Of a stretch of DNA of 35,006 bases, positions 8,401-35,006 are shown one piece after another; within the stretch, counting starts at the first letter, position 1; each line of letters opens with the position of its first letter. Below the pieces are notes generated by a model. It was not told where the DNA came from, made no database searches, and worked only from the letters and a program-made list of their open reading frames with translations. The translations under genes were made by a program, and so were the position numbers. The stretch lies in the NCBI RefSeq assembly GCF_000787575.1, contig NW_012236508.1, forward strand, positions 139,437 to 174,442. The letters are read 5' to 3'. Origin of the DNA: Acytostelium subglobosum. Lineage: Eukaryota.

Positions 8401-9125
8401 TTGATCCATTCTGTCGGAAACTAGTACGATTGATTGATTGATTGAATGAGTGAGTGAGTGGAACATGTACCTTTGGAGGACTGAACACATACCTGTGTAA
8501 GAGTACCAACTTCAACTTTGGCTTCTCATTGATGGGAGGGGCAATGTTGATGGTGTTGATGAACTTTCTCTTGGGCTTGAATTGATTCTCCATGGTCACG
8601 GGAGGACGCAACTGGATCTCCTCGTGATCACCGTTCGATGGCTCGTGGGCGGATTGTGAAGAGTTGTTCTTGGCCCATGTGAGGTAGGCCTGCTCCTCAT
8701 CGGTCGACTGACGCTTGAGTAGGAAGTTGCGGTGGGGATATCGACCGAATCTCTGGATGGTCTCGAGATGGTCGCGGGCAGATTGCGCGAACCTTTTGTA
8801 GTACTTGAGTTGCGCGGGAAACAGTGAGTCACTGGCCATAGATTCCATCAACTGATGTGCCCTCGTGACAAGCTCCAAGTTCTCAGAGTGCTCCAGAGGG
8901 AGGTAGATAAAGATACGCTCTGGCAATGAGTACATAGAGGCATGATCTTGGTTGGTCGGATTGTCAAGTATGTCCAGTGATAGACGCAATGCAACATCGT
9001 CATACTTGAACATGTCAGCTGATCCACGATACATTGCTCGAGGGAATTGATCAAACAGCAACAACAGTGCGATCCTGCCTCGTTGGAATGATGACCAACG
9101 ATCAAAGATGCCATCCACTATGGCG

Positions 9126-9163
<38 letters not shown>

Positions 9164-9505
9164 ATTGGACTGGTCGATTGATGCAGCTGCCTCTTGAAGC
9201 AGTTGTTCGAATCTACCCTTGTCGAGTGCACGTCTTCGACCGAACCAAAGCTTGGTCTTTCCATTGTATCTTTTGGACCAAGTGGATGTCTTGCCAAACC
9301 AGAATGAATAGACCAGTTCAATATTATTCTGATCATCAATGGACACTTGAGAGTTCAAGTGATTGGCTGGTTCATTACCATTACCAAGTATTAGTTGTTG
9401 TTGTTGAGAGGTATCAACAACTCCTTCACCAGATGATGATGTTGTTGATGTTGTTGTTGTTGTTGATGGTGTCACAATAGCGATGTTGTTATCGTTGGAC
9501 ATCAT
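5498..9505 (-). CDS. Large multidomain protein: N-terminal DUF924 domain, central FSH1/OVCA2-type serine hydrolase, C-terminal RNI-type leucine-rich repeats. Contains at least one in-frame intron (8492..8421) hidden inside the uninterrupted ORF.
   Basis: DUF924 motifs WFGRRRALD...RIALLLLFDQFPRAMYRGS...YLPLEHSENLE...RFGRYPHRNFLLKRQST. FSH1 motifs LLHSFRQNGSILKRSTKKL (after intron removal) and the nucleophile elbow DGIIGFSQGAAF. LRR_RI-type repeats LLLGNNIVGNGGAEAIADYIL..., LYLSCNQLGDAGAAEIAKGL..., LGLSSNCIGPAGARALVEAI. Continuous 1335-codon ORF on the minus strand. Confidence 0.7.
8421..8492 (-). other. 72-nt in-frame intron inside the DUF924-FSH1-LRR gene: donor CACAG|GTATGT at 8492, acceptor GTACTAG| at 8421.
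   Basis: The sequence is intron-like, with (CACT)n(CAAT)n microsatellite content of the kind seen in other introns in this window. Its length is a multiple of 3 with no stop, so the ORF finder read through it. Removing it produces LLHSFRQNGSILK, matching the conserved N-terminal FSH1/OVCA2 motif (LHGFRQNG). Confidence 0.6.
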
Positions 9506-10905: not shown

Positions 10906-12462
10906 TCAATTGGCTGGTGTCGTTCCATCATTCTCCACAACATCTTGTTCTATCTTGTCTATTTTTGCAATATCCTGATCCTTTGGTTGATCCTGCTGCA
11001 GCTGTTCCTCTTCAACAACAACAGCATCTGGTGTAGAAACAACAACGGGTTGTACAGCAGGCATTAGAGGTGTTTGTGGTGGAGTTGGAGCCAGGAACTT
11101 CTCAAGATCATCTTTGTTCTCATCAATGACCACTTGTTCAATCGATACGATGGCTGGACCATCATCAACTTTGGGTGGCACAACAGTTGGTGGGAGTATT
11201 CCACTTGTCTTGTAGTCGTTCAACTGCTGTTGAATGGTCTTGTCGAGGTTTGTTCGCAGTTTGGCATCCTCCTGTATCTTCTTTTGCAGCTCTTCGTCCT
11301 GTCGCTTGCGAGCCAAACGCTCCTGATCGATCTGAGCCTGTCTCTCCAAGATGGCCTTCTCCCTCTCGTGTCTGTTGAAGGCGGTGGACAACTCCTCCTC
11401 GAGCCTCGGCAGCTCAGCCTTCTTCACCTGTTCATATCTAGTGACCTCCAACTCCTTCTTGTCCTTCCACTTGCCCATCTCATTGTCAAGATAGTTGTCA
11501 ATCTCAATCGATAGACCAACCTCTAGTGATTCAATCTTTGAAACTATTGAGTCTGTTGTTGTATGATTGGTGATGTGTGAGTGAGGCGATCACATGTCTC
11601 GTCAATCAATCAAACATACCTAATGATAAACCGATTGTCTCGATCATTGAGTTCATCTCATCGAGGTGCGCCAACTCGATATGTGCCTTCTTCCAGAACT
11701 CGGCATGGGCAATGCATGTGCGAACGAGTGGTCCGATCTTCTTGTCACAGTCATCGGCGCGCTCAGCCAGGATGGTGCCATTTGTTCTGACCTGCTTCAG
11801 CTTGATCTCGTAGGAGCGCAACAGTAGTGATCCATTGTAGAGGTCCACGTCCTGTAGTGACTCCTTGAGCTGGGCCACCGATGGCAGGTGCACTGTTGTG
11901 TTGATCGTGTTGCTCATTGTGTTGCTGACGGTGCTGCTCACAGTGTTGCTGATTGTGTTAGTGACGGTGGAGACGTTGCTAGAGAATGCCTGGATGGCCA
12001 CTGGTATATCCTTGCCGGCTTCCTTCAAACTCTCCGGGAAGTCACGTTTAATCGAGTCCTTGATCGACTCTGTCACTGCTGTCATTGGCTGTACTACATT
12101 GTCCTTGAATGCATCAACTACTGGTTGTATATTATTGGACAATGTATTCAATGGTGATGTTGCGGTTGTTGTCGTCGTCGTCGTATCTTGTGGAGTTGTT
12201 GGTGAGGTTGTAGTCGCGGAAACTGATGTTGGAGTCGCTGTCGCATTGGTAGTAGTGGCCGCTGATGTTGCTGTTGGTGTTGTTGCTGTTGTATTGGATT
12301 GAGGTGCACCTGATTCAGCTGGCTTATTGAACAATGTGTCCTTTAATGAGCCAGTGCTATTTGAAACATTGTTAGAACTTGATTGATCGATTGATTGATT
12401 GAGTGAGAGGCCTGCTAGGATACATACGTCTCCTCAAACTTCTTAACGAATGATTTGAACAT
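10906..12462 (-). CDS. Hypothetical protein: Ser/Thr-rich low-complexity N-terminal half, central helical segment, and a charged coiled-coil C-terminus. Exon 1 12462..12428, intron 12427..12357 (71 nt), exon 2 12356..11620, intron about 11619..11553, exon 3 about 11552..10906.
   Basis: ATG at 12462 followed by a GTATGT donor. A phase-2 acceptor AATAG|C joins to the ORF 11606..12334. A donor TTAG|GTATGT at 11619 and the acceptor CAACAG|AC link in-frame to an open reading segment upstream of the ORF 10906..11478 (..SIVSKIESLEVGLSIEIDNYLDNEMGKWKDKKELEVTRYEQ...). The exon-3 acceptor is ambiguous between 11552 and 11543. Confidence 0.5.
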
Positions 12463-13309: not shown

Positions 13310-15519
13310 ATGAAGCATGCAATCAAGAGACGATTCTTGAAGTTTACAGGCATACTTGGATTCAAAGGTGCACAGGTCAGCAACAATGCACCGAATGATG
13401 AACCTGAGGAGGTTGGTCCGGCAATACCAACAGAGCCAACGTTTACAGAACCAGTAGAGTTGGAACGTGATGAACTAGAACAAAAGATGAATACTTTTAA
13501 GCATTATTTAGCATCACTTGCTCCATCATCATCAACTACCTCTGGGCTGGCTGATAATACAGACCTGTTGACAACACCTTTGGCACCACCAACTTCGCGT
13601 AACATTGCAGCATTATCACTTTCACCATCTGCATCATCGTCGACAATAGACTTTAGCAATGGTAGTCTCTATCTACCCAATGAGTTGATGCACGCCATCT
13701 TTTGCACCGTACTCTCAAACTCCAACATGCTCATTGACACTTCACAACAAAGACAACATCATCAACATCTACATCAACATAATCAACAACAACAAACAAA
13801 TGGAAGTGTATTGGCAAAGGTAAGAGAAAGTGCATCAATCAAACATAGAAGTGATAATGACTGACATGTCAATGATATAGGCAATACCAATAATAAGTGG
13901 ATTGACATGTGCAAGTATAAGTTGCACACAAACAACATCACCGGAGGAGTTGGTGCAACATCTGTTTATTCAGTTACCAGACTTGTCGGCACAGAAACAA
14001 AAGAAATCGTCAAAGCAGAGGACTTCAGTGTATAACAGTGGCGGTGGCGGTGGTGGCAGTAACTCGAGCAACAACCCATTCAGTCCACTTGACCAGATAT
14101 CATCATTCCGATCAAACATCAACAATGTTGTTGGCAATGTCGACTCGCCCTTGGCATTGAGTCGCACAGAGTCAGCTTCGTCATCGGTGCTCCAGCAACA
14201 GATGCTTCAACAACAGCAACAGCAACAACAACAACAGATCCAAGCTGCGACTCCCTATCGCATGGTGGACGTACTGATTGTCGATGACATTGACATTGCA
14301 CCCATGACAACAAGACACACTCTTCTTCAGATGATGGTCTATCGAAAGGTTGCATTCAAGGGCAACACATTTGACACACCGCCCTCGCTTGTAGTCATTG
14401 CTACAGCGTCCTCACTATCCAGCCGTTCATTCCTCAATCAGAGCATTGAACCTTTATCACCACTGATGGTATGTAGACACACCGCGACGAACATGAGAGA
14501 CTTCCTCAAGCTAACAACAATGTGGACTACCTACACAAACAGCTTGATTGCTTCTTTATCAACATCAGATTATATGAACACTTGAGACTACCTCAAGTGA
14601 CTGTACAGAGCGATCCATTAATATCAACCGCTGAATCAAAGTATATACTTGCACCAAGCCGTATCCAACATCTAAGGCAACTAATTTCCAAAGTACACAT
14701 TACACATGTATGTTAATCAGTGAGCTTTTGTTTGTTCACATTTGCGTCACATCTGACTCCAATCAATCAATCATCAACATAGGATATTGAACAATACATT
14801 AGAACTATTATCGTAAACCTTCGTAACCATCCACTCGTTACGTTTGGTCCTTCACCCAGGGCAACTCCAACACTGACTCTTGTTTCAAAGTATGTATTCC
14901 TTTACAATCAGTCTACACTCACTTTGCATGCAACACCTAACATATACATTACCCTAGGACTGTGGCGCTATTGTCTGGACAAAAGTTTGTTACGCCAACT
15001 CATGTGTTGACTGTAGCCACCAAGGTATTGAACCATCGTGTCTTCCTATCAAACCCATTCCCACTGGATCAGAACCAGGGAGACATGCCCAATCAAATGG
15101 ACATGGACACGAACAATGTTGTCTCAACCTTTACACCGATTCAAACATCACCATCCACATCGCCCAGCAGAATGACACCATCGATAATGGTTCACGAAGC
15201 GCCGGGCAGGAACAACCCACTCATGGAGACCTCTGCATCGTTGCCCTGTGTCAAGACTCATAAACGGTCGACATCAATCCTTTCACAAGCGACACATCTT
15301 CCTCCACCACCAATCTCCATCACAGACAACAGAGAAGAGGACTCATCCCAACCCATAACAAATAGCGGCAGCAATTCACTTGCCAAGTCCAACAACAACA
15401 ACAACAATAACCAGGCTGATCAACAGGGATCGATGGCGACTGGAGCATCAACTAACAACGAAATAGACTCATTCACAGTCATCAAGATCATCCTGGAGAA
15501 CCTTTCCCCGCCCATATAA
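13310..15519 (+). CDS. Degenerate MoxR-like (AAA_3 family) AAA+ protein with poly-Q and low-complexity insertions. Proposed exons 13310..13819, 13881..14468, 14543..14640, 14958..15519.
   Basis: Exon joins are phase-consistent: AAG|GTAAGA..ATATAG| (61 nt); ATG|GTATGT..CAAACAG| (74 nt); TCAAA|GTATAT..CCCTAG| (317 nt). The product shows a Walker-B/sensor-1 region VLIVDDIDIAPMTTRHTLLQMMVYRKVAFKGNTFDTPPSLVVIATA (compare MoxR [47 protein letters not shown]), then PLSPLMLDCFFINIRL (compare PLPEAQLDRFLLKLHV), then QKFVTPTHVLTVATKV (compare RDYVTPDDV sensor 2). The Walker A looks degenerate (..NGSVLAK|AIPIISGL across an intron). Confidence 0.5.
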
Positions 15520-16895: not shown

Positions 16896-17065
16896 TCTCT
16901 CTATCTATCTACTTTCATACAAATAATTAGCAATCAATCAAAGTGACTTGAACAGACGCTTTGTTGAGTTGTCCTTCAAAGACTCAAGTTGCGGCAGATC
17001 TGGGCTTCCCTTTAAAGAATTATTACAGAAATCTGTATGAAATTTCACTCTTTTTTTACACTTGT

Positions 17066-17104
17066 GGGCAAGGGTAAGGGCAAGGGCAAGGGTAAGGGTA
17101 AGGG
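17066..17104. repeat. Hexamer microsatellite (GGGCAA/GGGTAA) x 6.5 in the intergenic spacer between the SGT1 5' region and the 3' end of family gene B1.
   Basis: Direct reading: GGGCAA GGGTAA GGGCAA GGGCAA GGGTAA GGGTAA GGGTT. It is the source of the spurious Arg/Val-rich ORF 17062..17271. Confidence 0.9.
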
Positions 17105-17105
17105 T

Positions 17106-19296
17106 TCAAAGTTTAATGACCTTATGTTGTGAAGGGTTATTATCGATCATCTCTTCAAGTTCACGCCTCTTCAATATAGCGCCAGTAGTCAGTGAAGTCT
17201 TTCCGTATGAGGCCAAAAGACGATCGCACATTGCTATGATTTTGAGATTGCCTCCACGGCAAGACTTGTGACGGATTGAATTGAGCAATGGGACCAACAT
17301 GTTTGGCTTCCATCCAACTCGTTCAAATGGTGAGGTTGATTCACTGGCACGGTCTCCCTCAAACAAGTAACATAACAATTGGTGATAGTTCCTTTTGGTG
17401 GCGTCGTTGATACGGCGAAGTGATGGAAGATAACGTTTGAGCTGTGATGGACTTGTGCAGTTCTGATACACAACACGGATGATGTCAGTATCTCCTCTGA
17501 CCATAGAATAATCCACCAAGCGTGTCAGTGATTGCGTCTTGTCATTGACAATGTCATCCACACTAATGTATCCCTTGTCAAAGAGATGTGCCAGAACTGA
17601 AGCGTTACAGTTCTCCACCTTGATGATGTTGATTAACTTGTGTTTGGTAACCGAGGCGAGCTGAACAACATAATCGATCGATTCAAAGTCACTTTGCTTG
17701 TAGCAGTTGTTCATCATCGATTCCAAGTCTCTGCAGCTCATGTTGTGGACGACACTGTTTGGGTGACTGTCTTCATCATTGGTGTATGTGGTAAAGTGAT
17801 TGATGATCCACTTAATGACCGATATTGACTTTGATGATGCGATCAACAGCAATCTGACAATATTCCTCGAAGAAAATGACCTTGGTTCTGGATTCACAAT
17901 GTTGGCAAACTCGATGAATGACTCCATTGATATCTTGTTGTCTCCGGGTAATCCAACAACTTCAAGCAAAGAACAAAGGTGATCTATGGTTGGTTTGATT
18001 GTTTGATCCTTGGCCATGATCCTCTTGACTAGCTCCATGTCACGCTTCTCAATTGCACATGACAGAGCTCCACGATAATCTGATATGAGAGTCTTCCATT
18101 TGTCATTGTTACTCTCCTCCAACAACTTATCGACCAACACTTTGTTTCCAATCTTGATGGCATTACCCAAGATATTCTTACAATTAAGAATGATTTGGGG
18201 AATGGCCATCAGTCGCTCAATTAGGTCAACCGACAACAGATTTGAATTGATCACCAAAATGTTGATTGATTTGATTCGATCGGAAGGCAGTTGATCGAGG
18301 ATGAAGTTGGCAACTCCCAAGTGTTGTTGGGACAATGCTACTAAGATGAAATCAGTCGCCATGATTGTTCCAAAAGCCTTTAGCTCATTGAATATCCTCT
18401 CCACCATTGCAAGATGTCCATGACTGATTGAGCACGAAAGGGATGACTCTAGACTGAACGATTGATCTTCTAGGCGAATACGACTGAGTACCAAGTCCAG
18501 ATAGTCCCCTCGTCCACAAGAGCATATTTCATTGATAAATGATTGGACATAGCCTGATCTATCCTCAAACAATCGTGTCATTGCAGTCGATTCGACAAAG
18601 TACCGAAAGACTGATGTAATGTTGTGATTGATCGCGTAGATACATATCCTTAGGTGGTCGTCATATGACAAGATACCATGTTGATCCAGTAACTCGACCT
18701 TTTCCAATGCCCATGGTTTGGTGATCCAGGAAAGGTTCTCGACTTCTGTGTATTTGGAGGTGTCGAGTTTGGCATCACATTGTATGAGCTTGCGAAGGAA
18801 AGATGGATGTTGGACAAAATCCAAGGGGATCTCCAGTCGACCAGACTGAAAAGTGATGAGGACATACTGATCAAACAATCTCTCCCATTCAGGATGAGTG
18901 CATGTCGATACATTCTTGACAAAAGTAGCGCTGCGACGTGCAATAGACATTCTTGTATTGGCCATAAGTACGTCGACAGCTCGTTGGTCACACATCGTAT
19001 AGGCCATATCTAGTAGTTCTGTGTTCACAATAGTGTTGTTATCAAATGTTCGAGAGGTGTATGATTGTAGGAACCATTCCGTTGCACCATACTGGATATA
19101 ATCTATCAAACAATGATTTTCCAACAACTTTGAGCCTTTGATCACTTGATCACTCTCCACACCAAGTGACTTGTGTACCAATCCAACATGTTCCATTATA
19201 AACATTCCAAGCTTCCTGTCTCTGAACACTGAATGGACAGTCGTCTCCAACTGATATGAACATTGTGGATTCATTGCAGTGTCGATCGTATGTAGT
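17106..19296 (-). CDS. Family copy 1, B half (C-terminal exon of the A1-B1 gene); ankyrin-like helical-repeat protein of a lineage-specific family.
   Basis: ORF 17106..19274 extended upstream to the acceptor at 19297/19296. Conserved motifs: CSYQLETTVHSVFRDRKLG, IKGSKLLENHCLIDYIQYGATEWF, CTHPEWERLFDQYV, HPSFLRKLIQ, GWITKPWALE (variant), LAHLFDKGYISVDD..., LKRYLPSL. Confidence 0.7.
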
Positions 19297-19353
19297 CTGA
19301 TGTTTGATTGATTAGCAATGAAATCAATACATGACTGTATGAGTGATACTTAC
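19297..19353 (-). other. 57-nt intron joining A1 to B1: donor CAACA|GTAAGT at 19353, acceptor ACATCAG| at 19297. It removes the apparent TAA stop (19352..19350) of the A1 ORF.
   Basis: Canonical GTAAGT donor overlapping the stop codon; a CTAAT branch-like site; phase 2 to phase 2, giving ...QQQRQ-Q-LHTIDTAMNPQCSYQLETTVHSVFRDRK in frame. Confidence 0.65.
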
Positions 19354-21360
19354 TGTTGTCTTTGTTGTTGTTGATGTTGATTAACCAATGCATCAATCTG
19401 ATCAGTGCATAGCTTGATCACTCTGGTTGCTCCACACTTATAACCTTTGTTCAATATGGAATGAATGGTTCTCAATCGGTGTGAGACCGACATGCCGTTG
19501 AATAGCGGTGAGTTGAAGTGATACTCCAATGAGTGATAGGCATTGTACTTGGCCAGTTGGGTAAGATTCTCGAGACTTGGTCGAACCATTATCTTTGTGT
19601 CTAGATGTTCAAAGATAGAAAGTTGTTGAAGTGATTGGATAAAGTCTGGTCTATCCTGTATTAATGCCTGGTCCACCGCAGATTGTATTGGTACGCCTTC
19701 CAACTGCTCTCGTGTGTACAGCTTGACAACATATTCGACAACGTCCCAATGATCATTGCACATTGCATCATCCAATATTGACGGATCCTGTCTGATATAG
19801 TCCATGTGATTGAGCAAGAATGTTACATCGTCCAATGATCCACATTGTAATAGTTCGCAAGCCATAGTCTTTACCGCATCATCCTTCATTATCTCTGTTT
19901 GCGGGAAGAGTAAACACAATGTCTCGCGACAACACCTCTTGATCGCGTGTCTAAAACATTGAGGACTGTAGGCAATGTTGAGTTGAGTGTGGAGTAGTTG
20001 CATCACCTGGGCCGAGTGGCCGGCCGCCAATATCATTGCCTCATTGAGATAAGTGGGCACCTTGTGTCTACAATTCACAATGAACTGAGAAACGATATCA
20101 GCCGTGATGTTGCTCTCTGGCTGAGCCATTGCCTTTACCATGTTGAAGATTGAAAGACCGCTGAATCTCATCTGTGTTGCTCTGTTGCAGCTGATTGCGT
20201 TTGCCATCTCTTTGGACATCTTTCGACAGGTCTTGGCGTCTAGCTCCACAACCATATTGACATTTGCCTCGACACTGACAAGGTCATCGTGTCGGATCGC
20301 TGCCAACAGTGTGACCCTAAGCTTTGCCGGGTCCATTGAACTTGGATTGGGAGGTGTTTCAAAGCATGCTCGGACGTAATGCTCAGAGTTCTTTGTGATG
20401 ATGGTGTTACCAATGTACTTCTCAAAGATGTACTTGATAAACTCAACATGACCATGGTCCCATGCAACCTTGACTACATGGTTAATGTCATTCCTGAGGT
20501 ACCTGGTGATCCTCACTGATCTCATTAGCAGCTGAAACATTTCAATGTTACCTTGCTTGGCACATTGACAGAGATAGGAGGATATGAGCGGGTCTTCAAT
20601 TACCCATGATGGATGGTTTTCCAAGATGTATTGTACACTGTCCATCTGGTTGTACTTGACACTATGTCTTAGTGCTTCGCTTTTAAGAGTCTTTAGAGAG
20701 TAGAGGCAGCCAAACTCTTCATGAAGCACTTTGAGCATAGCAACACTGATGCCACGACCACGTATAAACTTGAATGGGTCGATGAGCCCATTTGAGTGCA
20801 TATCTATGGTCATGTGTTGGAGTAACAGTCGAACCAGTGACTCGTTGCCTGTGACCACAGCCTTGATGAGACCAGACACACTCAGACATTCGTGGATCGA
20901 CTGCTGAGTGAACGGTGTGAGGTATTGTTGTAGCAGATCAAAGTTGTCACGTCTGAATAGTTCTGCCAAACTCTCAAAGTCAGGACGGATATTTGGATGC
21001 TTGAGCAAATGTTCAAACACCTTTCTGTTGTTGTAGCGCACTGCACTTGATAACAGTTTGTTGTTGTGTGGGTAGTTGTTGTTGTTGTTGTTGTTGTTGG
21101 CCACGCTGTCGAATGTCTCGATGAACATTTGAGTGGCATTGTATTGCAACATCTCTATTAGATTGCCATTGGCGTGTAGCTTGGCACCTTTGATCGTTGA
21201 CTTTATCAATTATATCACCAGCCACAAGCATGCGTTCGTGATGGTACTTGTCATTGGCGAGGTTTATCAATCGACTGTGGATATCACTAACATGTTTAAA
21301 GATCAATCTACACAACACTCTATTGTGAAATACTAAATGAATACTACTATTATCTTTCAT
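19354..21360 (-). CDS. Family copy 1, A half (N-terminal exon of A1-B1). N-terminal 60 codons (21360..about 21215) are out of frame with the rest, so this is a possible pseudogene or a sequence error.
   Basis: Conserved start context ACAAACAAATAATGAAAGAT..SSIHLVFHNRVLCRLIF in the ORF 21013..21384. Downstream, the conserved IKSTIKGAKLHANGNLIEMLQYNATQMFIETF continues in a different frame (ORF 19350..21209), with the break at about 21203-21215. Confidence 0.5.
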
Positions 21361-21525
21361 TATTTGTTTGTTATAATTATCCATGTTTGAATGAATGAAA
21401 AAAGCAAGTTGGGGGAAGGATAAGTCATCATCCGCGGATTTCCATGAATCTCAAAAGATCTATATTATCATTATTCGTTCATTCAATTCAAATATATAGA
21501 GATAATAAAACATAACAAATAAATA
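21361..21525. promoter_or_regulatory. Putative shared bidirectional promoter between the divergently oriented A1 (minus) and A2 (plus).
   Basis: 165-bp AT-rich spacer between the two start codons. All A copies share the start context (A)CAAATAAATAATGAAT(G/A). Confidence 0.3.
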
Positions 21526-23581
21526 ATGAATAGTAATAAGAATAGTATACATTCAGTATTTCACAATCGATTATTATGTCGACAAATATTTAGTCATGTT
21601 CATGATATGCACAATCAATGGAGTCGTCTAACAAAATCATCATTCGATGATAGTGATGACCACCAAATACCTCGCAGGATAAAGTCAACGATCAAAGGTG
21701 CCAAACTTTATGCCAATGGCAATCTAATCGAGATGTTGCAATACAATGCCACTCAAATGTTCATCGAGGCATTCGACAGTGTCGCCAACAACTACCCACA
21801 CAACAACAAACTGCTTCAAAGTGCACTACTCTACAACAATGCAACTGTATTCAAACATCTTTGTAATCACCCAAACATGTTGGTGGACCTTAGAGTGGAT
21901 ACAGAAGACCTCCTGTCCAAACTATGTCAACTTGGCAACTTGGACATGCTCAAACAATACCTCATAGTCTATCCCTATCGTCCATTCCCCGACAGCATTA
22001 TGGCACATCTATGCAATGCCGTTAACACTGGCAACGAACAGTTTGTTCGTCTGCTGCTCCAACACATCACAATCGATCCCGTTGTCGCCAATGAGTTGGT
22101 GAGAGCAACCCATTTCAAACGAGATGCAGTCAAGGTTGGAATGCTCAAAGTGCTACACGAGGAGTTCAACTATCTATTTAGTTTCACTAGCTTATGGGAG
22201 CAAGCACTCTTCAGTTCAATCAGGTGTAATATGTTGGACAGTGTTCAATATATCATGGCTGGCGTGCCATCCTCATTGAATGAAAAAACCTTCACCAATT
22301 GTCTTAAGCTCTGTGCTCAAAAATGCAACATCGACATATTCCAAGTGTTAAGCTCGTCTGTAGTTGGTTCCAAACAACTGAAGGATTGTGATCTTGGAGA
22401 AATGGTCAGACAGGCACGAGATCGTGGACATGAATCATTCATCAAACATCTCTTTGATCATCATGTTGGCAACGACACCATCACTGAGAACTCCGAGAAG
22501 CACATTCGACAGGCACTGGAGTTGTCCACAACTAATAGAGAGGACACCACAATGTCCACCCAGGTCTATTCTGATCACCATGCCACGCTGAGGGAAGCGA
22601 TCAACAAGGATGACATTTTGGGAGTGGAGTCTTTTATACATAATTGTTGCTACATTCATTTGGACCAAATAACCTGCCAAAAAATGTCAGAGCCCATGGC
22701 AAGATTGCTCAGTAGTCCTCGAACACCTACACTGGTCTTCAAAGACTCAATAATCAACATGATCAAGGCCGTTCGCAAGCCAGGCAGCAACATCAATGTG
22801 GACATTGTGTGTCAGTTTATTGATAACTGTGAACATGATTCACACCAGGATTACGACTTTGAAGACGATGGACATTTAATGTATGCAATGATGGAGGCCG
22901 CTAGATTCTCATCGACATTGATGCGCAAGATCAAGGTTCGATTCAATATTCGATACGACAAGCAATGTTTGGAAGAGGCACTTTATTCAAAGTGTCGTGA
23001 GACAATAGAGGTATTGTTTCAAGAAATGGATCATGGTCAGATCGTTGATGCCAAGAGTATAATATTCAATATCATTGGTGAAGAGTCAGGATCATTGGAT
23101 GAGATCAAATTCATTCTGGATCACGTGCCGGTTGAGATAAGGAGCGACCCAAAGATCTGTGAATATGTCATGTACAATAATGATGATAAAGTGATTGAAC
23201 AAGTCATTGACATGTTTACACCAGAGCAATTGGACGACAAGGCGTTGAGTAGTATCTTCACAATGGCAATGATGAAGAACAAACTACACATTGTACAGTC
23301 ACTTCAACAACGATTCGTATCGAATCGATCATCCAATACTCTTGTTGATCGACCTTCGCTCTTGACACTCAGAATTATGGTAGATAACAATTCCCACAAC
23401 ACACTAGAGTACCACCTCAAGTCAGTGACATTCGCCAAAATTCCAATCATCAATCGTTTGCGAACCATTCATTCAATCATGGAGAGTGCTTATAACCTTG
23501 GAATGACCAGAGTGATCAAACTGTGCACTGATCAGATCAAGGCCATCTCAACGACAACACCAATCATTACCCAACAGTATG
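21526..23581 (+). CDS. Family copy 2, A half (intact, 707-codon ORF 21526..23649).
   Basis: MNSNKNSIHSVFHNRLLCRQIF..IKSTIKGAKLYANGNLIEMLQYNATQMFIEAF...RVIKLCTDQIKAI. The likely splice donor G|GTTCAA at 23582 lies upstream of the in-frame stop at 23647-23649. Confidence 0.65.
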
Positions 23582-23672
23582 GTTCAACAAAGATCATTGG
23601 GTGGTTATGCTCATTCACTAACTCATTCTTTCTCAAACAGATATATTGATACACCAATGATTGACGCTCAAG

Positions 23673-25894
23673 AATGTACTGGCCAACGGTTGGATATAGC
23701 ATTTCACTCAGTGTTCAGAGACAGAAATCTTGGAAAGTTCATCATTGAGCAAATTGAGGCAGTACATGATATCATAGGTGAGGATAGTACACTAATGATC
23801 AAGGGTAGAGGCTTCATCTACGATCGTTGCTTTAAAGATTACATTCGTTATGGTGCTTTGGATTTGTTCCACCGGGAGTTCTCTATATCCACATTAAGAA
23901 CTTACCCCAATTCAAGATTACTTGACATGGCGATGGAGCATGATGTGCGATTCATCAAGACCCTTTTGGCAAACCCCATGATGTTGTTAGATGATCACAC
24001 AAGCCTTCAATGTTCATTATTTTGGAACCTATCATTGTGCACTCATCCAGAATGGGAGTGGTTGCTTGAACAGTACATCCTGATTATATCTCAGACATCA
24101 ACACCTGAGCTTGACGACAAGTCAATATCATATATCCGCCATCCATCATTCCTCCGCAAACTCATGCAATGGAATGTCATTATCAAACCTACATCAACAT
24201 CAACATCAACAAGTGAAGAGAATGAACTTGTAAACAAAATGGACAAGGGATGGCTCACAAAGCCATGGGCACTGGAGATGTTCCAACTTCTGGAGCAACA
24301 TTCATTAATAAGTCCGATACTCCGCCAAGGACTATTACTCAAAGCAGCAGAGCACGACATCAAATCAATCATTATATATTCTATCGATCGACAATATATA
24401 TCCAACCCATCATTTGCAAATGAACTTCTAAAGCAATGTTGCAAGTTTGGACGAGTAGACCTCATTGATAGTCTACTTCCATTCCTTCCCGTGCGCCTGT
24501 ACAGCAATTTTTTCAGATACTCATTGCAATTTGGACATCTCGATATCATTGTAAAGCTCCACCCTCACTATGTCCAATCATCCAGCACTGGACACTCCAA
24601 AGACTGGCTAGGGTTGCTCCAAACTCCTTTGGTAAATGGACACTTGGAGGTTGTAGACTATTTGATCATGAATATCCCATCACCAAAGGACGACGACAAT
24701 GATAGGTCAAAGACATTGAGGTCATTTTCAATCTATGAGATTGGCTCAAAGATCATGTCTGTTGACTTGATCAAACGATTGATGACCATTCCCAACATCA
24801 CATTCAACTTTGGCAAGTTGTTGTCACTGGCAATCAATTCCGGAAACAAGGATATGATCACATTTATAATGAAGGACGGAACGGAATCATTGGTGTCAAC
24901 AGGTCATATTATTTGTGCTCTTAAAGTTGGTGATTTGGACACAGCCCGAGCGATCATTGACATGGCGCCAAAGTTGAAGATATCCAGTGATGATTGCTTT
25001 GACTCTTTGATAGATCACATTGGGGAGCCCAACAGCAAGGTCACTGAGGATGTGATCATTGAGTTTGCAACCAAACTTCACAACAACTCCCATCCCTATT
25101 TATTCAAAGTGCTCTTAAAGGCAGCCGCCAAACCATTGTCTGTGATCAAGATGGTGATCAAACATTACACCTCATTCTACGAAGGTGACAAGTTGGTTGG
25201 AGGCAGCATTGGTGATATCATTAACAGAGTGACTAAAGATCAATGGAGACAGATATTAGAGATCAGTGTCAAACGTGATGATTTGGAATCAATCGATTAT
25301 CTTATCCAACTTATGATTTTGTCCAACAACGACAACAACTGGAGGATCAGTTCACTCATCAACTTGGAACATTGCAAAACATCAGTATTGGAGTATTTGT
25401 TTGACAAAGGATACATCAGTGTGGATGACAGGAATGATCGGTTGGCAGGATTGATCGATTGGGCCTGCACCAAAGGACAATTGGACATCATCAAGTGTGT
25501 TCATCAACGTCGTACGACACCATCACAACTTCAAAGACATCTCCCAACACTCAAACCAATTTTGGATGCATCCTTGGTGAACCATCACAAAGTTATCGGC
25601 TATCTGTTTGATGGCAATGATTCAGCATTCAAACGATCACAAGTCAATATCTACATGATACCATTGCTCCAAGCAGTAAGACACGAATCAATCTATTTCG
25701 GCAATCTAATTGTTATTGAGATGTGCGATCGTTTGTCGTCTAGTCAACCTGAACAGACTATCGCTAGTGGACGTGGAGTCAAGAGAAAAGATCATGATGA
25801 TGACCATGTTGATGATGATGATACTACTGCCATAACAAAACCAAAGTCTGCAAGAGTACATAATGGTCATACTTTTTTCGAAGAACACTCCTGA
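23673..25894 (+). CDS. Family copy 2, B half (intact; ORF 23579..25894, overlapping the A2 ORF in another frame).
   Basis: ..CTGQRLDIAFHSVFRDRNLGKFIIEQ..., CTHPEWEWLLEQYI, HPSFLRKLMQ, GWLTKPWALEMFQLLEQH, LEYLFDKGYISVDD, LQRHLPTL. A possible 91-nt intron (23582..23672, CACTAAC branch site at 23625-23631) would join it in-frame to A2. Confidence 0.6.
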
Positions 25895-26002
25895 GAGATA
25901 TCTCAACAGTTCCCTCACAACAACATCCCCCACAATCATCGTGCATTCATTCAATACATTGATCATAGAGATAATAATAACTATAACCCAAACAAATAAA
26001 TA

Positions 26003-27955
26003 ATGAATGATAAGAATAGTATACACTTAGTGTTTCATAATCGATTCTTTCGACATGTCAGTGAGATGCACAATCAATGGCGTAGTCTAGCAACATCATC
26101 GTCATCAGAGTATGATAATGATGACAACCATGATCATGATGATGACGACCAAGTACCTCATATAAAGTCAACGATCAAAGGTGCCAAACTACATGCCGAC
26201 GGCAATCTCATTGAGATGTTGAGATACAATGCCACTCAGATGTTCATCGAAGCGTTCGACAGTGTCGCCAACAACTACCCCATACTCCGTAATATTCAAC
26301 AACACAACCGTATTCAAACATCTATGTAAACACTCAAATATGATAATGGACATGAGGAATCAACTCCAACATATCTGTCAAATTGGCAACCTTGTCATAC
26401 TCCAGCTCTACCTCACAATCAATACATATCGCCAAATACCAAACGACACCGTCTCACACCTTCATCTCGCCATTGACACTGGCAACGAACAATTTGTTCG
26501 TCTGCTTCTCCAACATCTCACAATTGACGACAAGGCCAACGACAGAATGACGTTCAAAAGATGTGGTGTCAAGGTTGGCATGCTCAAAGTACTGCACGAG
26601 GAGTTCAACTGTCTCTACAGAATCAAACAACTTTGGGACGTTGCACTCTTGCGCTCGGCCAGGTGTAACATGGTGGACAGTGTTCAATATATACTTGATA
26701 ACCTTCCCTCGGATTATGATCAAAAGTCAATCGGTGTCCTCCAGAGTTTTCTTCAACAATGCGCCACGTCAGGTTCATCCAACATGCTCCAAGTGTTGAG
26801 CCAGTCAACTGCTGGCGCCAAACTACTCAAGACCTACGACAACTTTGGAGGACTCGTTCAACGTGCGCTGGAGAATGGCCATGAATCATTTGTTGAGCAT
26901 CTCAAAGCCATCCCCCTGCATAGAACCAGCTTTCAACAGAATGAACATTTCACACTTTTGACCTCCATCCTCAAAGATGACTTGGTTAGCTTCGAGGAAT
27001 TAATTGGACAATGGAATGATCATGATTTCGAGTCGGACAAAAAGGTTTGCCAAAGAATGTCGGTGGCGATGTCAACATTGATAAGCAGTCCTCGAACCAT
27101 ACCTCTGACTTTCTACAATAGTTCATTGCTCAACATGATCCGTGCCGTTGGTAAACCGGGCAGCAATATCACCGAAGATATTGTTTGCCAGTTCATTGTT
27201 AACTGCAATCATTTTGGGCATGACTATGGATATAGCGAGGATTCTGACTACCCTGCGTTTTTATATGACATGTTGACCATAGCTGCGGGATTCTCCGATG
27301 ACAAGGTGATGCGTCAACTCTTCGATCGGTATGGCGAGCACTATGACAAGGACAGTTTGAAGATGGCAATTCAATCAAAGTATCACAAGACAGTGATGTT
27401 TCTATTACAACGACTCGATAGGAATGTGATCAACACTGTCAAAGATAGTCTATTCAGTCTCATTGCCGATGGATCATACTCTTTGGACGATATCAAGATC
27501 ATTCTGGACCGCGCCAATGAACTCAAGACTGATACTTTCATATGTGATTGGGCTGCGTTCCATCAACATGACGAAGTGTTTGAGTATGTTATCTCAACTT
27601 TTACATCAGATCAACTTGATGAACTGGTATTGGACCGGATCATATCGCATGCAATGACCTCAAACAAACTAAACATTGTTCAATCACTTCAACGACGATT
27701 CGGGTGGGTACGTGGTCCAAAGCTCTGGACACTCCTAGATATGGCCGAACACAATGCATACAGCACACTAGAGTACCACTTTAAGTCATCTACATTCACC
27801 AATATTCAAATCATACATCGTTTGCGAACCATTCACTCTATCTTGGACCAAGCTTATCAACTTGGATTGTCACGAGTGATCAAACTGTGCTCTGATTATA
27901 TCAGGGCTTTGGCAATCCCATCAACAACAACATTACCATCCAATCATCAACAAAT
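26003..27955 (+). pseudogene. Family copy 3, A half, with an internal deletion of about 31 nt and a frameshift near 26278..26290 relative to A2 and A4 (ORFs 26003..26329 and 26229..27959).
   Basis: ..AFDSVANNYP in one frame, then YSVIFNNTTVFKHLCKHSNM in the +1 frame. The paralogs read ANNYPHNNKLLQSALLYNNATVFKHLCNHPNM continuously. Confidence 0.6.
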
Positions 27956-28023
27956 GTAAGTTATCTAACTGAACTTAAAGATGGATGTAGTTACTCTCAT
28001 TTACTAACTTCACTCACCCACAG
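27956..28023 (+). other. 68-nt intron joining A3 to B3: donor CAAAT|GTAAGT at 27956, TACTAAC branch at about 28011-28017, acceptor CCCACAG| at 28023. It spans the apparent stop of A3.
   Basis: Textbook GTAAGT donor, TACTAAC branch and CAG acceptor; phase 2 to phase 2 giving ..HQQ-M-MIICLYNYIRYNAMEWFLKAF. Confidence 0.7.
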
Positions 28024-30088
28024 GATGATCATTTGCCTGTACAATTACATACGATATAACGCAATGGAATGGTTCCTAAAGGCATTCTCCGTTTGGAACA
28101 ACCCACAAGGTTCACAACACAACATTGCTAGAGTTGGCAATCAATCATAACATTCGATTTGCCAGTGTACTTTTGACCAACCCGATGTTGTCATTCAAAG
28201 AGTCCAATGTCGCCCAATATCTATTGGAACGCATCGTCTCATCCAGAATCAATCAGAGTGGTTGCTTGATCAATACATCACGATCACCACTCAGAACTCA
28301 TCACAAGATGAGATCGGTCTCACCACCGTCTCATTGATCAAACATCCATCATTCCTTCGCAAACTAATTCAATTGGGAGCCAAACCATCCAAGCTCATAT
28401 CCACCGACACCAATGTTAATGAGGACCACATCTCATACATGAACGAGGGATGGCTCACCAAACCATGGGCACTGGAGATGTTCCAACTTATGGAGCAGCA
28501 CTCAATCATCGGTCCACATCTCAAACTCCAATTGTTATTAGGATCAATAGAACACAACATCACATCAATTGTCAATCATTGTGTTGATGGTATTCGACAA
28601 ATGAATGATGCGTCAAGAGGACGATTGTTAGATCAATGTTGCAAGTATGGACGTGTTGAGCTGTTTGACATTATACGCTCACTCTTCCCCATGACGGAGA
28701 ATATCATATATTCGGCACTGTTTATCAGCGCTGCAAAGTATGGACAAATGGACATACTCCAAAGGGCCCACTCACTCTTGGATCCCGACAATCTCCCAAC
28801 ACCAAGTAGCTTGTTCGAGTGTACAAAGTCAGCATTGGCCAAAGGACATCTGGATGTCTTCAACTTCATAATCGACATAATCACATCATATTATGAACAA
28901 CACAAGGATCAGGAGATACTACTCGACAGATGTTTGGTCAATAGTATTGATTCAAGTATCATGTCGGTGGACTTGGTCCAACGAGTGAAGGCACATTCCA
29001 ACTTTCTCTTGGACTTTGGACTGTTGTTGGCCGAGGCCATCAAATATGGAAACAAACCAGTTATCAATATGTTGATGAATGACCCATCAACAACACTATC
29101 AATCACTCATGTTGAGAAGGCGTTTGAGGCAGGAGATTTGGAATCAATCAGAATGATCATTGACAAGGCACCAAACTTGTTCACTTACGATTATCTTAAC
29201 TTTTATCAAATCGAAACAGTGGAGAAGTCATTTTCTTCATTTTTTGATAAAATCGGAGTTCCTGGTAGCTTGGTCACTGAGGATGTGATTCTAGAGTTGG
29301 TCACCATACTGTGCAAATTGGACAAAACCATGCGTATATTTGGAGAGACTCGAAATATCTTTCAAAAGGCAGCGACTAAATCACTGTCTATGATTAAAAT
29401 GGTGATCAATACCTTCAAACCAGTCATTGACACCGGGTCAATTTATGATTTCAGAACAGTAATTGAGAGCAGTGTCAAACGATCCGATTTGGAATCACTC
29501 GATTATCTGATTGGTCTGGCAATCACATCGTACAAACCAAGGAGATACGATCCGAAGACACCAAAGATCAGTGAGCTCATCAACTTGGAACATTGCAACA
29601 AGTCAGTGTTGGAGTATCTTTTTGACAAAGGACATATCAGTGTCGATGGCAAAGAGGATGATTTGGAATTATTGATGGATTGGGCCTGCACCAATGGACA
29701 TTTGGACATTATCAAGTGTGTTCATCAACGATGTGCCACACCATTGCAACTTCAAAGATATCTGCCAACAATCCAACATATTTTGAATGCATCCTTCTCA
29801 AACCATCATCAAGTGATCAGTTATCTATTAGATGGCAAAGATTCGGCGTTCCAACGATCACTGGTCAAGTTCGACATGATACCATTGCTCCAAGCAGTAA
29901 GATTCCAATCGATCAAATATCAAGGCAATTTAAAGATCATTGAGATTTGTGATCGATTGTTGTCCAATCTTTCAATATCCCATACTCGTGGAGTCAAGAG
30001 ACGAGACCAAGATGATATTGATGATGAGGTTGTCAGAAAGTCTGCCAGGTCATCACTCCACAAGAATCCATATCTTTTCCAAAAATAG
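28024..30088 (+). pseudogene. Family copy 3, B half. At least three frameshifts between 28095 and 28262, and a deletion of the conserved N-terminal HSVFRDR...IKG segment. The remainder is ORF 28262..30088.
   Basis: Homology to B2 continues across three reading frames: ICLYNYIRYNAMEWFLKAFSVW / TTHKVHNTTLLELAINHNIRFASVLLTNPML.. / IYWNASSHPE / SEWLLDQYITI. One shift coincides with a 4-nt CAAT-type insertion at 28246-28252. Confidence 0.6.
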
Positions 30089-30159
30089 TCAACTTCAAAA
30101 GTGAGTGGATGCCTCGAACATTCATTCATAGATAATCATACATATACAACAAATAAATA

Positions 30160-32252
30160 ATGAATGGTGATGATAGTAATAAGAATAGTATACATTCAGT
30201 GTTTCACAATCAATTGTTATGCAAACAAATCTTAAGAGATGTCCACGATATTCATAGTCGATGGTCCAACAAAGATGGTAATTTGGATGATGATGATCAA
30301 GTACCTCATATCAAGTCAACGATCAAAGGTGCCAAGCTATATGCCAATGGTGATCTAATTGAGATGTTGCGATACAATGCCACTCAAATGTTCATCGAAG
30401 CATTCGAACGTGTCTCCAACATCACGTACCCATACCCTCACATAACAAACAACAACAATAACAACCTATTATGGTTCTCAATATATATCAACAATGTGAC
30501 CATATTCAAATATCTGATCAATCATCCAAACAACTACAAATATACAATGTTCATTGATACTACAACAAAAGAACTACTTGAAGTTATATGTTATCATGGC
30601 AACACTGAGATGCTTCAACAATACCTCGAGATCACAGCCTACCGTCCACTACCCAGCGACACTTTGTCCAACCTCACTCTTGCCATGGACACTGGAAACA
30701 TACAATTTGTACGTCTCATGCTCCAACACCTCATCACCATCGACTTAACCGTGGTCAACCAGCAACATCAAAAGATCAAACCAACTTTCAATCAACGTCG
30801 CTCCGTCAAGGTTGGAATGCTTACGATGCTACACGAGGAGTTCAACTGTCTATTCAAACTCACTGAGCTCTTCAAAGCTGCCCTGTTGCACTCAACCAAG
30901 AACAACATGTTGGACAGTGTTCAATACATAATGGACAACATGCCTTCAGACATAGAGTTCCACGAGAAGGATCGAACATTCCCTGCATGTCTACAACATT
31001 GTGCTGTGACAGGTGATATCAACATGTTCCAAATGTTTAGCAAGTCGACTGCTGTTGGTGCCAGACTACTTTTGGAGTATAAATTGGATGACATGATTGA
31101 GGAGGCGCGTGATCGTGGCCATGAATCATTCATCAAACATCTCTTTAAGCATCATGTTGGCAATGACACAATCACAGAGTCTTCTGAGATCTGTATACGA
31201 GACTCATTAACGTCAACAGGAGATAGTCTAAGTGTCACATTGTTGTCTGCGATCCGTAACAATGACACTTTGAGTGTAGAGACACTTCTTACTCAGGAGG
31301 ATGAAGAGGATCATCCTTTCTGTGAGTTGGATGCCAAGACCTGCCGAACAATGTCAAAGGAAATGGCTACATTTATCAGCGCCCCACGTGCACCTGGACC
31401 ATCATTCACTTTCCACGACTCATTGTTCAACATGATCACTGCCGTTGGCAAGCCGGGCAGTAACATCACCGATGACATTGTATGTCAGTTCATTGAGAAC
31501 TGCACACACGAGTCACTTTGGTATGACATGAGCTATGGAATCACAGGCTACATTAGTGAAAACCTGTTGCTCATCGCTGGTAGCTCATTAACAATCATGC
31601 AGAGGCTCATGGATGTATTATACCTACGGTTTGATCATAACAGTCTGGTTGCGGCAATTCAATCAAAGCGTCAAGATACAATATCATTCCTATGTCAAGT
31701 GTTGGTAGAGGACAGAGAGGAGATTGAACATCCTTTAGTCAAGGATGCAGCATTCAATTTCATAAAAGATGCATCATCTTTGGAGAGCATCGAGTACATA
31801 TTGGAGAAGTTGGGTCTCAAGGATGATCCAAACATATGTGTATGTGCCCTGTACAATGACCGACCAGAAGTGTTTGAGCACATCATCAACATGTTCACAC
31901 CAGACCAGATTGGTGACTGTCTGCTTAATGATATAGTATCATGTGCAATGATCAAGGATAATCTACAAGCTGTACAGTTACTTCAACAACGATTCGGACC
32001 ATCAGACAGTGTACGATCAGGGCAATCGGCACTACTGTCGATGGCTCAATACAGTGCCCATCACACTCTCGAGTTCTACTTTGCCTCTCCATTATTCATC
32101 AACATGTCAGTCACCAATCGATTGCGAATCATTCATATAATCATTGACAAAGCCTACGATTATGGTATCACTAGGGTGATCAAGCTGTGCACTGATCAGA
32201 TCGATTCGACACAATCACTCATTCAACAACAACAACAACAATATCATCCCTT
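30160..32252 (+). CDS. Family copy 4, A half (intact; ORF 30160..32352).
   Basis: MNGDDSNKNSIHSVFHNQLLCKQIL..IKSTIKGAKLYANGDLIEMLRYNATQMFIEAF...RVIKLCTDQIDS...QQQQQYHPL followed by a GTACGT donor at 32253. Confidence 0.7.
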
Positions 32253-32319
32253 GTACGTGTATCAATCCAACATCCATCACTCATTCAATGTACTAACTTC
32301 AATCCCCACCTTCACCCAG
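32253..32319 (+). other. 67-nt intron joining A4 to B4: donor CCCTT|GTACGT at 32253, TACTAAC branch at 32291..32297, acceptor CACCCAG| at 32319.
   Basis: Of all AG dinucleotides before B4, only this acceptor keeps the B4 frame; it lies 22 nt after the branch A. The B4 ORF has no ATG upstream of its conserved HSVFRDRK motif and begins at a TTG, consistent with it being an internal exon. Confidence 0.75.
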
Positions 32320-34426
32320 ACTTCAATCCAAGACTTGTTCACGTCAGTTTGAGTCATTGGTTCACTCAGTGTTCAGAGACAGGAAGGTTGGCATGCTCAT
32401 TATGGGACAAGTTGGAGTGATTCACAAGTCACTGGGTGTGGAGATCATCAAAGGGGCACACTTATTGGACAATCATTGCCTCTCAGACTACATCAAATAT
32501 GGAGCGTTCGAATGGTTCATCAAAGCATACTACTCCGCCAACTCCAAGACCATCTCCTCAAGAAGGACGAACAATGATCTCCTTGTACGGGCATTCCAGA
32601 GGCTTGACACCCGCTTCATTGATCTCCTCCTGGATGACCCCTTGATGAACATCAGCGAACAAACAGACCATCAAGTATTCTTTTGGAGGTTGTCAATATG
32701 TACACATCCAGAATGGGAGAGATTGTTTGATCAGTATGTCAAGATCACTGCACCACTCAAGCTTGACCGGCTCACTCTTGCATCGATCCGACATCCATCA
32801 TTCCTCAACAAACTCATTCAAAGTAATGGACTCATCAAACTCCCAACCCTGGACACTAGTGATGGCGAAACTTACAATCAATGCGTTAATATGATTGCAG
32901 AGGGATGGCTGACCAAACCATGGGCATTAGAGATGTTCCAACTGATAGTCAAACACTCACTCATGACTCCAGAGTTCCCACAACTATTGATCAAGGCGAT
33001 CAACCACAATGTATCATCAGTGATCAGATGTTGGGTTGATTCTCTAGAAGGACCCGATGAGAGACTGAACAATATCTTGGATCAATGTATATATGGAGAT
33101 TTGGAGCAGCTTCAGATGATTCTTCGCGTAGCTATACCAACCAATATAACATATTACAATTTGTTTCAGACAGCCATCTGTCACAACAAGATTGCCATTG
33201 CTCAATGGTTGTGGAAAGACCGCCTGCCCAATCTATCATACAAGATTGATCCATTGGATTCGTTTGGCACTGCTTTGAAGTGTGGACACTTGGAGATGTT
33301 TGACTTCCTGTGCACCATCCAACAACATGCATCAACATTCGATCCCAACAAATACTCGGATGTGCAGAACATCCATCCAAGCATCCTATCAACCGAGCTG
33401 ATCGAGCGACTTATGGCACATCCCAACATCAAGTATCCCTTTGGCCTGGTGCTGGGCCAGGCGATCCAGTCTGGCAACAAGGCAGTTGTCGATATGTTGT
33501 TGAATGATGAGCGACTCACTCTATCAAGAGAGAGAACGTATGATTATAAGGATGCCGTAATGAATGCTATTGATGTTGGTGATGTTGATGTGATCAGACA
33601 GATATTCAAGGTGGACCCAACAGTCAGACTATACAATGGAGAAGGATTACTACCATTGTTCAATCACATTGGTTTGCCTGGCAGCATGATCACCGAGGAT
33701 GTGATCATTGAATTGGCCGACAAACTCATCAGCCGACCATCACTATGTTTGAACGTACAGAGTCTACCCTTGTTGCTCTGCAAGGCGGCAACCAAGTCAC
33801 TATCATTGATCAAGATGGTCATCAATAACTTTACAACATTCAACAACCACCAAGGTGATGATGACGATGTCTGTGTCGTGCACCAAATGACACCAAACAT
33901 GTTCAAGGGAGTGATTGATGTTTGCATCAAAAAAAGCGATACAGAGTCAATTGACTATTTGATACATCTGGCCATCACTGCTTCCAAACAACAACATGTC
34001 CACATCCATGAACTAATCAACTTGGAGAGTTGCAACAACACGTCAACACTGGCACACCTCTTTGACAGGGGATATATCAGTATCGATGATGACAAGAGTG
34101 ATGCTTTGCCAAGATTGGTAGATTGGGCTTGCTACACTGGTGACTTGGACATTATGAAGTTTGTCCATCAACGATGTTGCACAACAACACAACTACTTCG
34201 ACACCTGCCATCATTCTTCCACATCTTCACTGCATGTTCCAAATTCAATCATCACAAACTTCTCTGTTATATGTTTGAAGGTGATGAATCACCATACAAT
34301 CGAGTCAAGTTTGATATAATCCCATTGCTTATAATTGTACGTCATTTATCTGTTCATAATGGCTACCTAAAGATTGTTGCCATGTGTGATCATATAATCT
34401 CATCCAATCAAACAACTACAAAATAA
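32320..34426 (+). CDS. Family copy 4, B half (intact; ORF 32357..34426).
   Basis: ..LQSKTCSRQFESLVHSVFRDRKVGMLIMGQ..IKGAHLLDNHCLSDYIKYGAFEWF, CTHPEWERLFDQYV, HPSFLNKLIQ, GWLTKPWALEMFQLIVKH, LAHLFDRGYISIDD, LLRHLPSF. Confidence 0.7.
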
Positions 34427-34608
34427 ATAAAATATCTATTATTATTGGAACTAATCCAAAAAAATATCTTGGGATTTTTGCAATCTGTGTTCGAAGAAAA
34501 TCGAATTAAGATTTTACCAGTGCAATCACTTCAAGTTGGGTACCAACCTCCAACGCTCTTATTAATGTTTATACTAGCGATAGAGATAGAGATAACATAC
34601 CAAGCATA

Positions 34609-35006
34609 ATGGACAACAACCTTCGAAAGGTGTTTGGAAACAAAGTGTTGCGAACGACAGTCTTCCAACATCTCTGTGATATTCACAAACGATGGATCAG
34701 TCTATCATCACTCAAACAACAACAACAACAACAACATGATCAAGAACGAGAACAATCATGGATGATAAAGTCAACGATCAAAGGTGACAAGTTGTTGGCA
34801 GAAGGCAGTCTTGCACGATTTCTCAAGTTCAACGCGACTGAATGGTTCATCAAAGCATTCGACAGCTTTACACCAAAGTGTCACCAACTCACATCACGTC
34901 TCCTCTTTAAATCATTCAAATATAACAATATCCGAGCATTCAATCATATACTTGACAATACCAACACTGATCTTGATGATGATATCACACCCAGCCAGCT
35001 GACAAA
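34609..35006 (+). CDS. Family copy 5, A half, 5' part only (runs off the window end).
   Basis: MDNNLRKVFGNKVLRTTVFQHLCDIHKRW..QQQQQQ..MIKSTIKGDKLLAEGSLARFLKFNATEWFIKAFDSF.. carries the family N-terminal motifs. Confidence 0.6.
   Translation, partial: MDNNLRKVFGNKVLRTTVFQHLCDIHKRWISLSSLKQQQQQQHDQEREQSWMIKSTIKGDKLLAEGSLARFLKFNATEWFIKAFDSFTPKCHQLTSRLLFKSFKYNNIRAFNHILDNTNTDLDDDITPSQLT

Follow-up and report, generated by a model that had tools for sequence, protein, structure and literature searches.

A phase-2 linker intron very probably joins the paired open reading frames of a tandem ankyrin-like gene family in Acytostelium subglobosum

Four tandem pairs of open reading frames (ORFs), each of about 600-770 codons, run from about 17.1 kb to the end of a 35,006-nucleotide stretch of DNA (the window) from the dictyostelid Acytostelium subglobosum LB1, and raise the question of whether the two ORFs of a pair are neighbouring genes or the two exons of a single gene. 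The pairs, here called u1 to u4, are A1/B1 on the minus strand and A2/B2, A3/B3 and A4/B4 on the plus strand. The window lies in a 502,132-bp contig and its genes carry the locus tags SAMD00019534_100320 to _100370. Six deposited LB1 proteins, GAM26857.1-GAM26862.1, map exactly, exon by exon, onto it, and the last of them marks one more copy at the window edge:

34609..35006, plus strand: 5' part of a fifth tandem paralogue, with a 100% match to residues 1-132 of GAM26862.1 (SAMD00019534_100370); it continues past the window

The window ORFs also include major vault protein (MVP), mitochondrial-type L16, DUF924-FSH1-LRR and MoxR-like AAA genes, together with an SGT1-like gene carrying CS and SGS domains. 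The DUF924-FSH1-LRR gene is one 1335-codon ORF on the minus strand (5498-9505), in which DUF924, an FSH1 serine hydrolase and C-terminal RNI-like LRRs are combined in an unusual domain fusion that also contains poly-N and poly-T tracts.

An initial annotation of the window had described each A/B unit as a two-exon gene of about 1400 codons. This description fits u2 and u4, which are intact, cleanly, but u1 has an N-terminal frameshift and u3 is degenerate.

Candidate linker introns of the four units

The joined reading of u4 comprises three features:

30160..32252, plus strand: exon 1 of u4 (A4 half), an ORF from ATG 30160 to a phase-2 end, TT
32253..32319, plus strand: candidate u4 intron, 67 nt, phase 2, with donor GTACGT (32253-58), TACTAAC (32291-97) and CAG (32317-19)
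32320..34426, plus strand: exon 2 of u4 (B4 half), without an in-frame ATG ahead of HSVFRDR

On reading the sequence, we found this intron and its three signals exactly where the initial annotation had placed them, and the same junction occurs in the deposited model GAM26861.1 (SAMD00019534_100360), which takes in 30610..32252 of exon 1. The codon across the junction is TT|A (Leu), followed in the B4 frame by LQSKTCSRQFESLVHSVFRDRKVG, and the spliced unit reads as an uninterrupted protein of 1399 aa, preceded by the conserved leader ACAAATAAATA ahead of its ATG. The spliced peptide QQQQQYHPLLQSKTCSRQFESLVHSVFRDRK is identical in GAM26861.1 (1179 aa), which also includes QQQQQYHPLLQSKTCSRQFESLVHSVF. 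The A4 stop had been placed inside the intron, but this TGA (32350-52) sits 31 nt 3' of the acceptor, in the A frame, which goes unread owing to the +1 shift of the 67-nt intron. The junction peptide likewise needed amendment, since it reads ...QYHP-L-LQSK, with two Leu, where three had been written.

For u1, the corresponding features are on the minus strand:

19354..21360, minus strand: exon 1 of u1 (A1 half), with the ORF at 21209..19354 and ATG 21360 in another frame
19353..19297, minus strand: candidate u1 intron, 57 nt, phase 2, with GTAAGT (19353-48), TGCTAAT (19317-11) and CAG (19299-97)
17106..19296, minus strand: exon 2 of u1 (B1 half), with an internal ATG at 19274

The proposed u1 intron was borne out by the sequence, with the TAA stop lying within the GTAAGT donor and CA|A regenerating Gln, and its junction is that of GAM26857.1 (SAMD00019534_100320; 1307 aa), which includes QHQQQQRQQLHTIDTAMNPQC. 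It had also been claimed that neither B4 nor B1 has an ATG before HSVFRDR; this stands for B4 but not for B1, in which ATG 19274 lies 13 codons upstream of the motif. At the N-terminus of u1, ATG 21360 starts MKDNSSIHLVFHNRVLCRLIFKHVSDIHSRL... and specifies the conserved MKDNSSIHLVFHNRVLCRLIF... motif, but in a frame other than that of the ORF with IKSTIKG at its start (21209). The frameshift is located at about 21215-21270, in an acidic linker, and reflects either a 1-nt indel in that linker or an assembly error. A 47-nt candidate intron (GTACCA..AAG) was rejected as a remedy for its wrong length modulo 3 and poor signals, and we found no plausible intron that restores the frame between 21360 and 21209. 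Directly 3' of the u1 stop codon, the plus strand carries a short GGGTAA/GGGCAA hexamer repeat (17060-17105).

The third unit has been damaged on both sides of its intron:

26003..27955, plus strand: exon 1 of u3 (A3 half), degenerate, with a frameshifting deletion near 26275-26290
27956..28023, plus strand: candidate u3 intron, 68 nt, phase 2, with GTAAGT (27956-61, containing the A3 TAA), TACTAAC (28002-08) and CAG (28021-23)
28024..30088, plus strand: remnant of u3 exon 2 (B3), with the HSVFRDR segment deleted, TAA at 28148-50 and frameshifts

Its intron reads CAAAT|GTAAGT ... TACTAAC ... CCCACAG, precisely as first described, and the junction is shared with GAM26860.1 (SAMD00019534_100350; 580 aa), which begins at an internal Met (26340), ends at 28150 and includes SNHQQMMIICLYNYIRYNAMEW. 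About 45 codons (HSVFRDR...IKG) are gone directly after the acceptor at 28023, and the in-frame TAA at 28148-50 is accompanied by two further frame changes before 28262. The splice signals are still perfect despite these lesions. Judged by its lesions, u3 is a decaying copy and a probable pseudogene.

The second unit required a different intron from the one first proposed:

21526..23576, plus strand: exon 1 of u2 (A2 half); GAM26858.1 is the same ORF unspliced, 21733..23649
23577..23640, plus strand: candidate u2 intron, 64 nt, phase 2, with GTATGG, CACTAAC (23616-22) and CAG (AAACAG); missing from the public annotation
23641..25894, plus strand: exon 2 of u2 (B2 half); publicly represented just by the 209-aa fragment GAM26859.1, 24668..25451

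The junction tentatively suggested before, 23582..23672 with a GTTCAA donor and an AAG acceptor, turned out to be the worst of four frame-preserving GT..AG options, and we dropped it in favour of 23577..23640, which scores far better. With the latter, the donor junction is CAACA|GTATGG and CA|A encodes Gln, the same as in u1; the peptides YIDTPMIDAQEC and YIDTPMIDAQECTGQRLDIAFHSVF are retained and align with HTIDTAMNPQCS and LHTIDTAMNPQCSYQLETTVHSVF of u1, respectively; and the spliced u2 is an uninterrupted 1434-aa protein. The A2 stop (TGA, 23647-49) lies 7 nt 3' of the acceptor, in the frame abandoned by the splice. The general statement that each A stop lies inside an intron or at its donor is therefore correct for u1 and u3, with TAA in GTAAGT, but not for u4 and u2, where the stops are 3' of the acceptors. 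In the public annotation, u2 is split between SAMD00019534_100330 (GAM26858.1, 638 aa), an unspliced reading of A2 that ends with the A-frame stop (23647-49), and SAMD00019534_100340 (GAM26859.1, 209 aa), a fragment within B2. These two should be merged into one 1434-aa model with the splice 23576|23641. Neither the u2 intron at 23577..23640 nor the 1434-aa u2 protein is in the public record.

Intron signals and their chance expectation

We scanned both strands for the pattern GTANGK-N(15-70)-CTAAY-N(6-30)-YAG and compared the result with 200 first-order Markov shuffles. The window gave nine sites, against 2.66 ± 1.6 expected and a shuffle maximum of 7. Four of the nine fall exactly on the four A/B boundaries, and another four lie where the ORFs of unrelated genes are broken (1407..1483, 14469..14542, 14890..14957 and, on the minus strand, 12427..12357). 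The ninth site (minus strand, 31627..31533) is antisense within A4 and bridges no ORF, and was taken as chance. Furthermore, between two and eight GT..AG pairs keep the frame in each unit, and the chosen site scores best among them in every case.

The linker introns share with the canonical short U2-type introns of the same genome their donor, branch site, acceptor, spacing and near-70-bp length, and nothing about them is unusual except the conservation of position and phase among paralogues. Their donors are GTACGT (u4), GTAAGT (u1 and u3) and GTATGG (u2), with GTAAGT or GTATGT in the control introns of the MVP, MoxR-like and other genes, and the branch A lies 15-23 nt before the CAG acceptor in all four. 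They measure 57-68 nt and the control introns of the window 68-77 nt; the size distribution that the genome paper gives for A. subglobosum introns defined from cDNA and EST data has its mode at 70 bp (PMC4334915, Suppl. Fig. S2). One of the control introns, in the MVP gene (1407..1483, 77 nt; GTAAGT...TCTAAC...TTAG), splits HYIH|VLD. Without it, the N-terminus of the product reads HHYIH|VLDNN and aligns to solved MVP structures without gaps (E 3.8e-23), and homology thus validates the local intron grammar independently.

Protein identity between the units is just 40-50%, and their introns can hardly be aligned at all. All four copies within the window nonetheless keep the donor, the branch site, the acceptor and phase 2, and the exons flanking the linker intron align across the units: AGAGTGATCAAGCTGTGCACTGATCAGATC; CACTCAGTGTTCAGAGACAGGAAG.

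One gene or two

The splice signals, the restored reading frame, the homology of the two halves and the match to deposited models all point the same way: A and B are, with high probability, two exons of one gene joined by a phase-2 linker intron. In addition, at least 10 further paralogous models of 1191-1487 aa are continuous through the linker, with the shared layout VIKLC.D.I, a variable Q/S/T-rich linker, and HSVF.D.KLG. We infer that the A-B units are actually spliced and expressed. The promoter and leader from which each gene is transcribed would lie 5' of the A half; one U2-type GT-AG intron (57-68 nt, phase 2) would be removed from the low-complexity linker region; and the spliced message would be translated in one run, beginning at the start codon of A and ending at the stop codon of B. 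The A stops would then be by-products of unspliced reading, namely the TAA in GTAAGT for u1 and u3, and the first stop in the frame left behind by the +1 splice for u2 and u4.

A conserved leader distinguishes the two halves, since it is found ahead of all A starts and of none of the B starts:

21371-21358, minus strand: leader ACAAATAA(ATA)ATG of u1
21515-21528, plus strand: leader ACAAATAA(ATA)ATG of u2
25992-26005, plus strand: leader ACAAATAA(ATA)ATG of u3
30149-30162, plus strand: leader ACAAATAA(ATA)ATG of u4

This element may be specific to the family, or it may be a translation-start context typical of the genome.

Three of the four junctions (u1, u3 and u4) have been in GenBank since 2015, and in this respect the observation is correct and known: the deposited LB1 models of this locus (Urushihara et al. 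2015, PMC4334915) join A and B exactly at the three junctions 19353..19297, 27956..28023 and 32253..32319 of the initial annotation. They differ from our reading in their internal-Met starts, in doubtful extra in-frame introns and in the division of u2 into two. The deposited u4 and u1 models start at an internal Met (30610 and, in GAM26857.1, 21152, respectively), and conserved N-terminal motifs lie upstream of both. According to the genome paper, the LB1 models combine alignments of cDNAs and ESTs, homology to D. discoideum and the output of an ab initio dicodon predictor, and were in part curated by hand (PMC4334915). The models of the present units are most likely ab initio predictions and not transcript-proven, because the family has no D. 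discoideum homologue and the models start at internal Met residues and carry extra in-frame introns that delete family-conserved residues. Their match to our junctions would thus represent agreement between predictors and not transcript proof. We found no transcript-derived proteins clustering with the deposited models.

If the extra introns of the public models were real, the genes would have more than two exons, with additional introns in u4 (about 31519-31644 and 33086-33175) and in u1 (about 18677-18612, minus strand). These segments are present in the deposited models and have GT..AG ends, but they are located inside uninterrupted ORFs, have no CTAAY branch site at the usual distance and delete family-conserved blocks, for example AAG.S..VM.LLH and CC..GR.E.L. 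We regard it as unlikely that they are genuine; the extra in-frame introns of u4 and u1 are probably ab initio artefacts.

A single gene could also use retention of its intron as a regulated option, leading to an A-only half-protein or to transcript decay. The position of the in-frame stops, at the donor in u1 and u3 or 7-31 nt past the acceptor in u2 and u4, would suit such a role, as would the in-frame stop carried by the 57-nt intron of u1, whose length is a multiple of three (3n). Short 3n introns with in-frame stops are reportedly a pattern found under nonsense-mediated surveillance (Jaillon et al. 2008). However, in phase 2 a GTAAGT donor always brings a stop with it, and nothing separates these introns from ordinary, constitutively spliced ones; a regulated retention is unlikely.

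Only 71-182 nt of intergenic DNA, with 30-33% GC, separate one 4-kb gene of the tandem array from the next (25895-26002, 30089-30159 and 34427-34608), and promoters and terminators must consequently be very compact; at such distances, the proximity of A and B alone proves nothing. The shortness of these true spacers, the public GAM26858.1 that consists of A2 alone read to the A-frame stop, and the in-frame ATGs upstream of the conserved motif in B1 and B2 would all be compatible with A and B as separate adjacent genes whose intron-like signals are fortuitous or vestigial, but this is highly improbable, given that B4 lacks an ATG before the conserved N-terminal motif, that, upstream of any B ATG, the B frame is conserved as coding sequence right back to the acceptor, that the leader is missing before B, that all four diverged copies retain donor, branch site, acceptor and phase, and that both halves stand together in a single protein in most of the family models with the better scores (about 1100-1500 aa).

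Duplicated halves and the gene family

The exon boundary had been placed at the seam of two duplicated halves, and profile comparison upheld this. In pairwise BLASTP, A and B show only weak similarity (25% identity over 293 aa, E 1e-4). Comparison by hhalign of an A profile and a B profile, each made from 13 halves, gave a probability of 99.8% and an E-value of 2.9e-30 over 590 colinear columns, establishing their colinear homology; the duplication behind them would be ancient. Pfam ankyrin models matched A4 (Ank_2, 33.8 bits; cut-off 27.3), A2 (30.7 bits) and B2 (Ank_4, 29.7 bits, cut-off 22.7; Ank_3, 23.9 bits, cut-off 22.3), while B4 reached 22.2 bits, below the cut-off, and B1 gave no match.

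We also modelled GAM26861.1 by AlphaFold2 with 18 family sequences. The model is all-helical (mean pLDDT 78.8, pTM 0.44), and the u4 junction (residues 507/508) falls within a segment of pLDDT<50 (498-526) between two confident helical halves. The model thus places the intron in a disordered linker that connects two modules of ankyrin-like helical repeats. The top Foldseek match in the PDB is the 24-repeat AnkB structure 4rlv (E 1.5e-5, prob 1.00), at TM-scores of just 0.16-0.20, and HEAT, ARM and PPR solenoids score as well. With ankyrin-repeat proteins (Ank_2/Ank_3/Ank_4; AnkB, PDB 4rlv), the family appears to have a helical-repeat solenoid in common, whereas its repeats are very divergent and each of its halves carries a conserved N-terminal HSVF(H/R)(N/D)R...IKG..L motif that lies outside the Ank models. 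Ankyrin solenoids generally act as protein-binding scaffolds, and by analogy the family proteins may do the same.

As in other internally duplicated genes with a seam intron, the intron here lies in the linker between colinear homologous halves; no single-half outgroup gene was identified for the A. subglobosum family. A distinctly improbable origin of the family is that two single-half ankyrin genes lying in tandem fused, that the linker intron is a relic of the spacer once between them, and that its retention serves to make A-only proteins. In every copy, retaining the linker intron would cut translation short at the donor or just past it.

All matches to the spliced u2 protein in a homologue search came from A. 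subglobosum LB1. In an exhaustive HMMER search with GAM26861.1 against 1.84 billion representatives, 102 proteins matched at E ≤ 1e-3; LB1 is the source of 35 of the 37 matches with a known source, these 37 consisting of 18 named homologues, 6 further window-derived models and paralogues, and a sampled set of matches. The two others rank with the weakest matches and are ankyrin proteins, one from Cavenderia fasciculata and one from a metagenome. GAM26858.1 was recovered in the exhaustive search and was absent from the search with spliced u2 despite its identity with A2. At 50% identity, the same library of 1.84 billion proteins contains about 100 family clusters, nearly all from LB1, and the LB1 genes are grouped in tandem at several places (locus tags 0234xx-0267xx, 1003xx-1011xx and 1133xx-1138xx). 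As far as these searches reach, the family appears as a large, lineage-restricted expansion that is almost confined to A. subglobosum. The genome paper anchored its analysis of gene families on those of D. discoideum (PMC4334915). The searched passages of that paper leave the family unmentioned and do not contain the word "ankyrin", and the family is not in its Table 2; its supplements have no entry for these loci by locus tag, "ankyrin" or model type (PMC4334915), and a literature search for Acytostelium subglobosum with ankyrin found nothing on this family.

A reading of the DNA alone therefore recovered what are very probably real splice junctions, and its value is otherwise mainly in annotation hygiene. 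The gains are the u2 intron with its merged model, the flagging of u3 as a probable pseudogene, and the doubts cast on the introns and starts of the deposited u1 and u4 models. The biology is mildly interesting, in that A. subglobosum appears to possess a large, lineage-restricted family of internally duplicated, ankyrin-like proteins.
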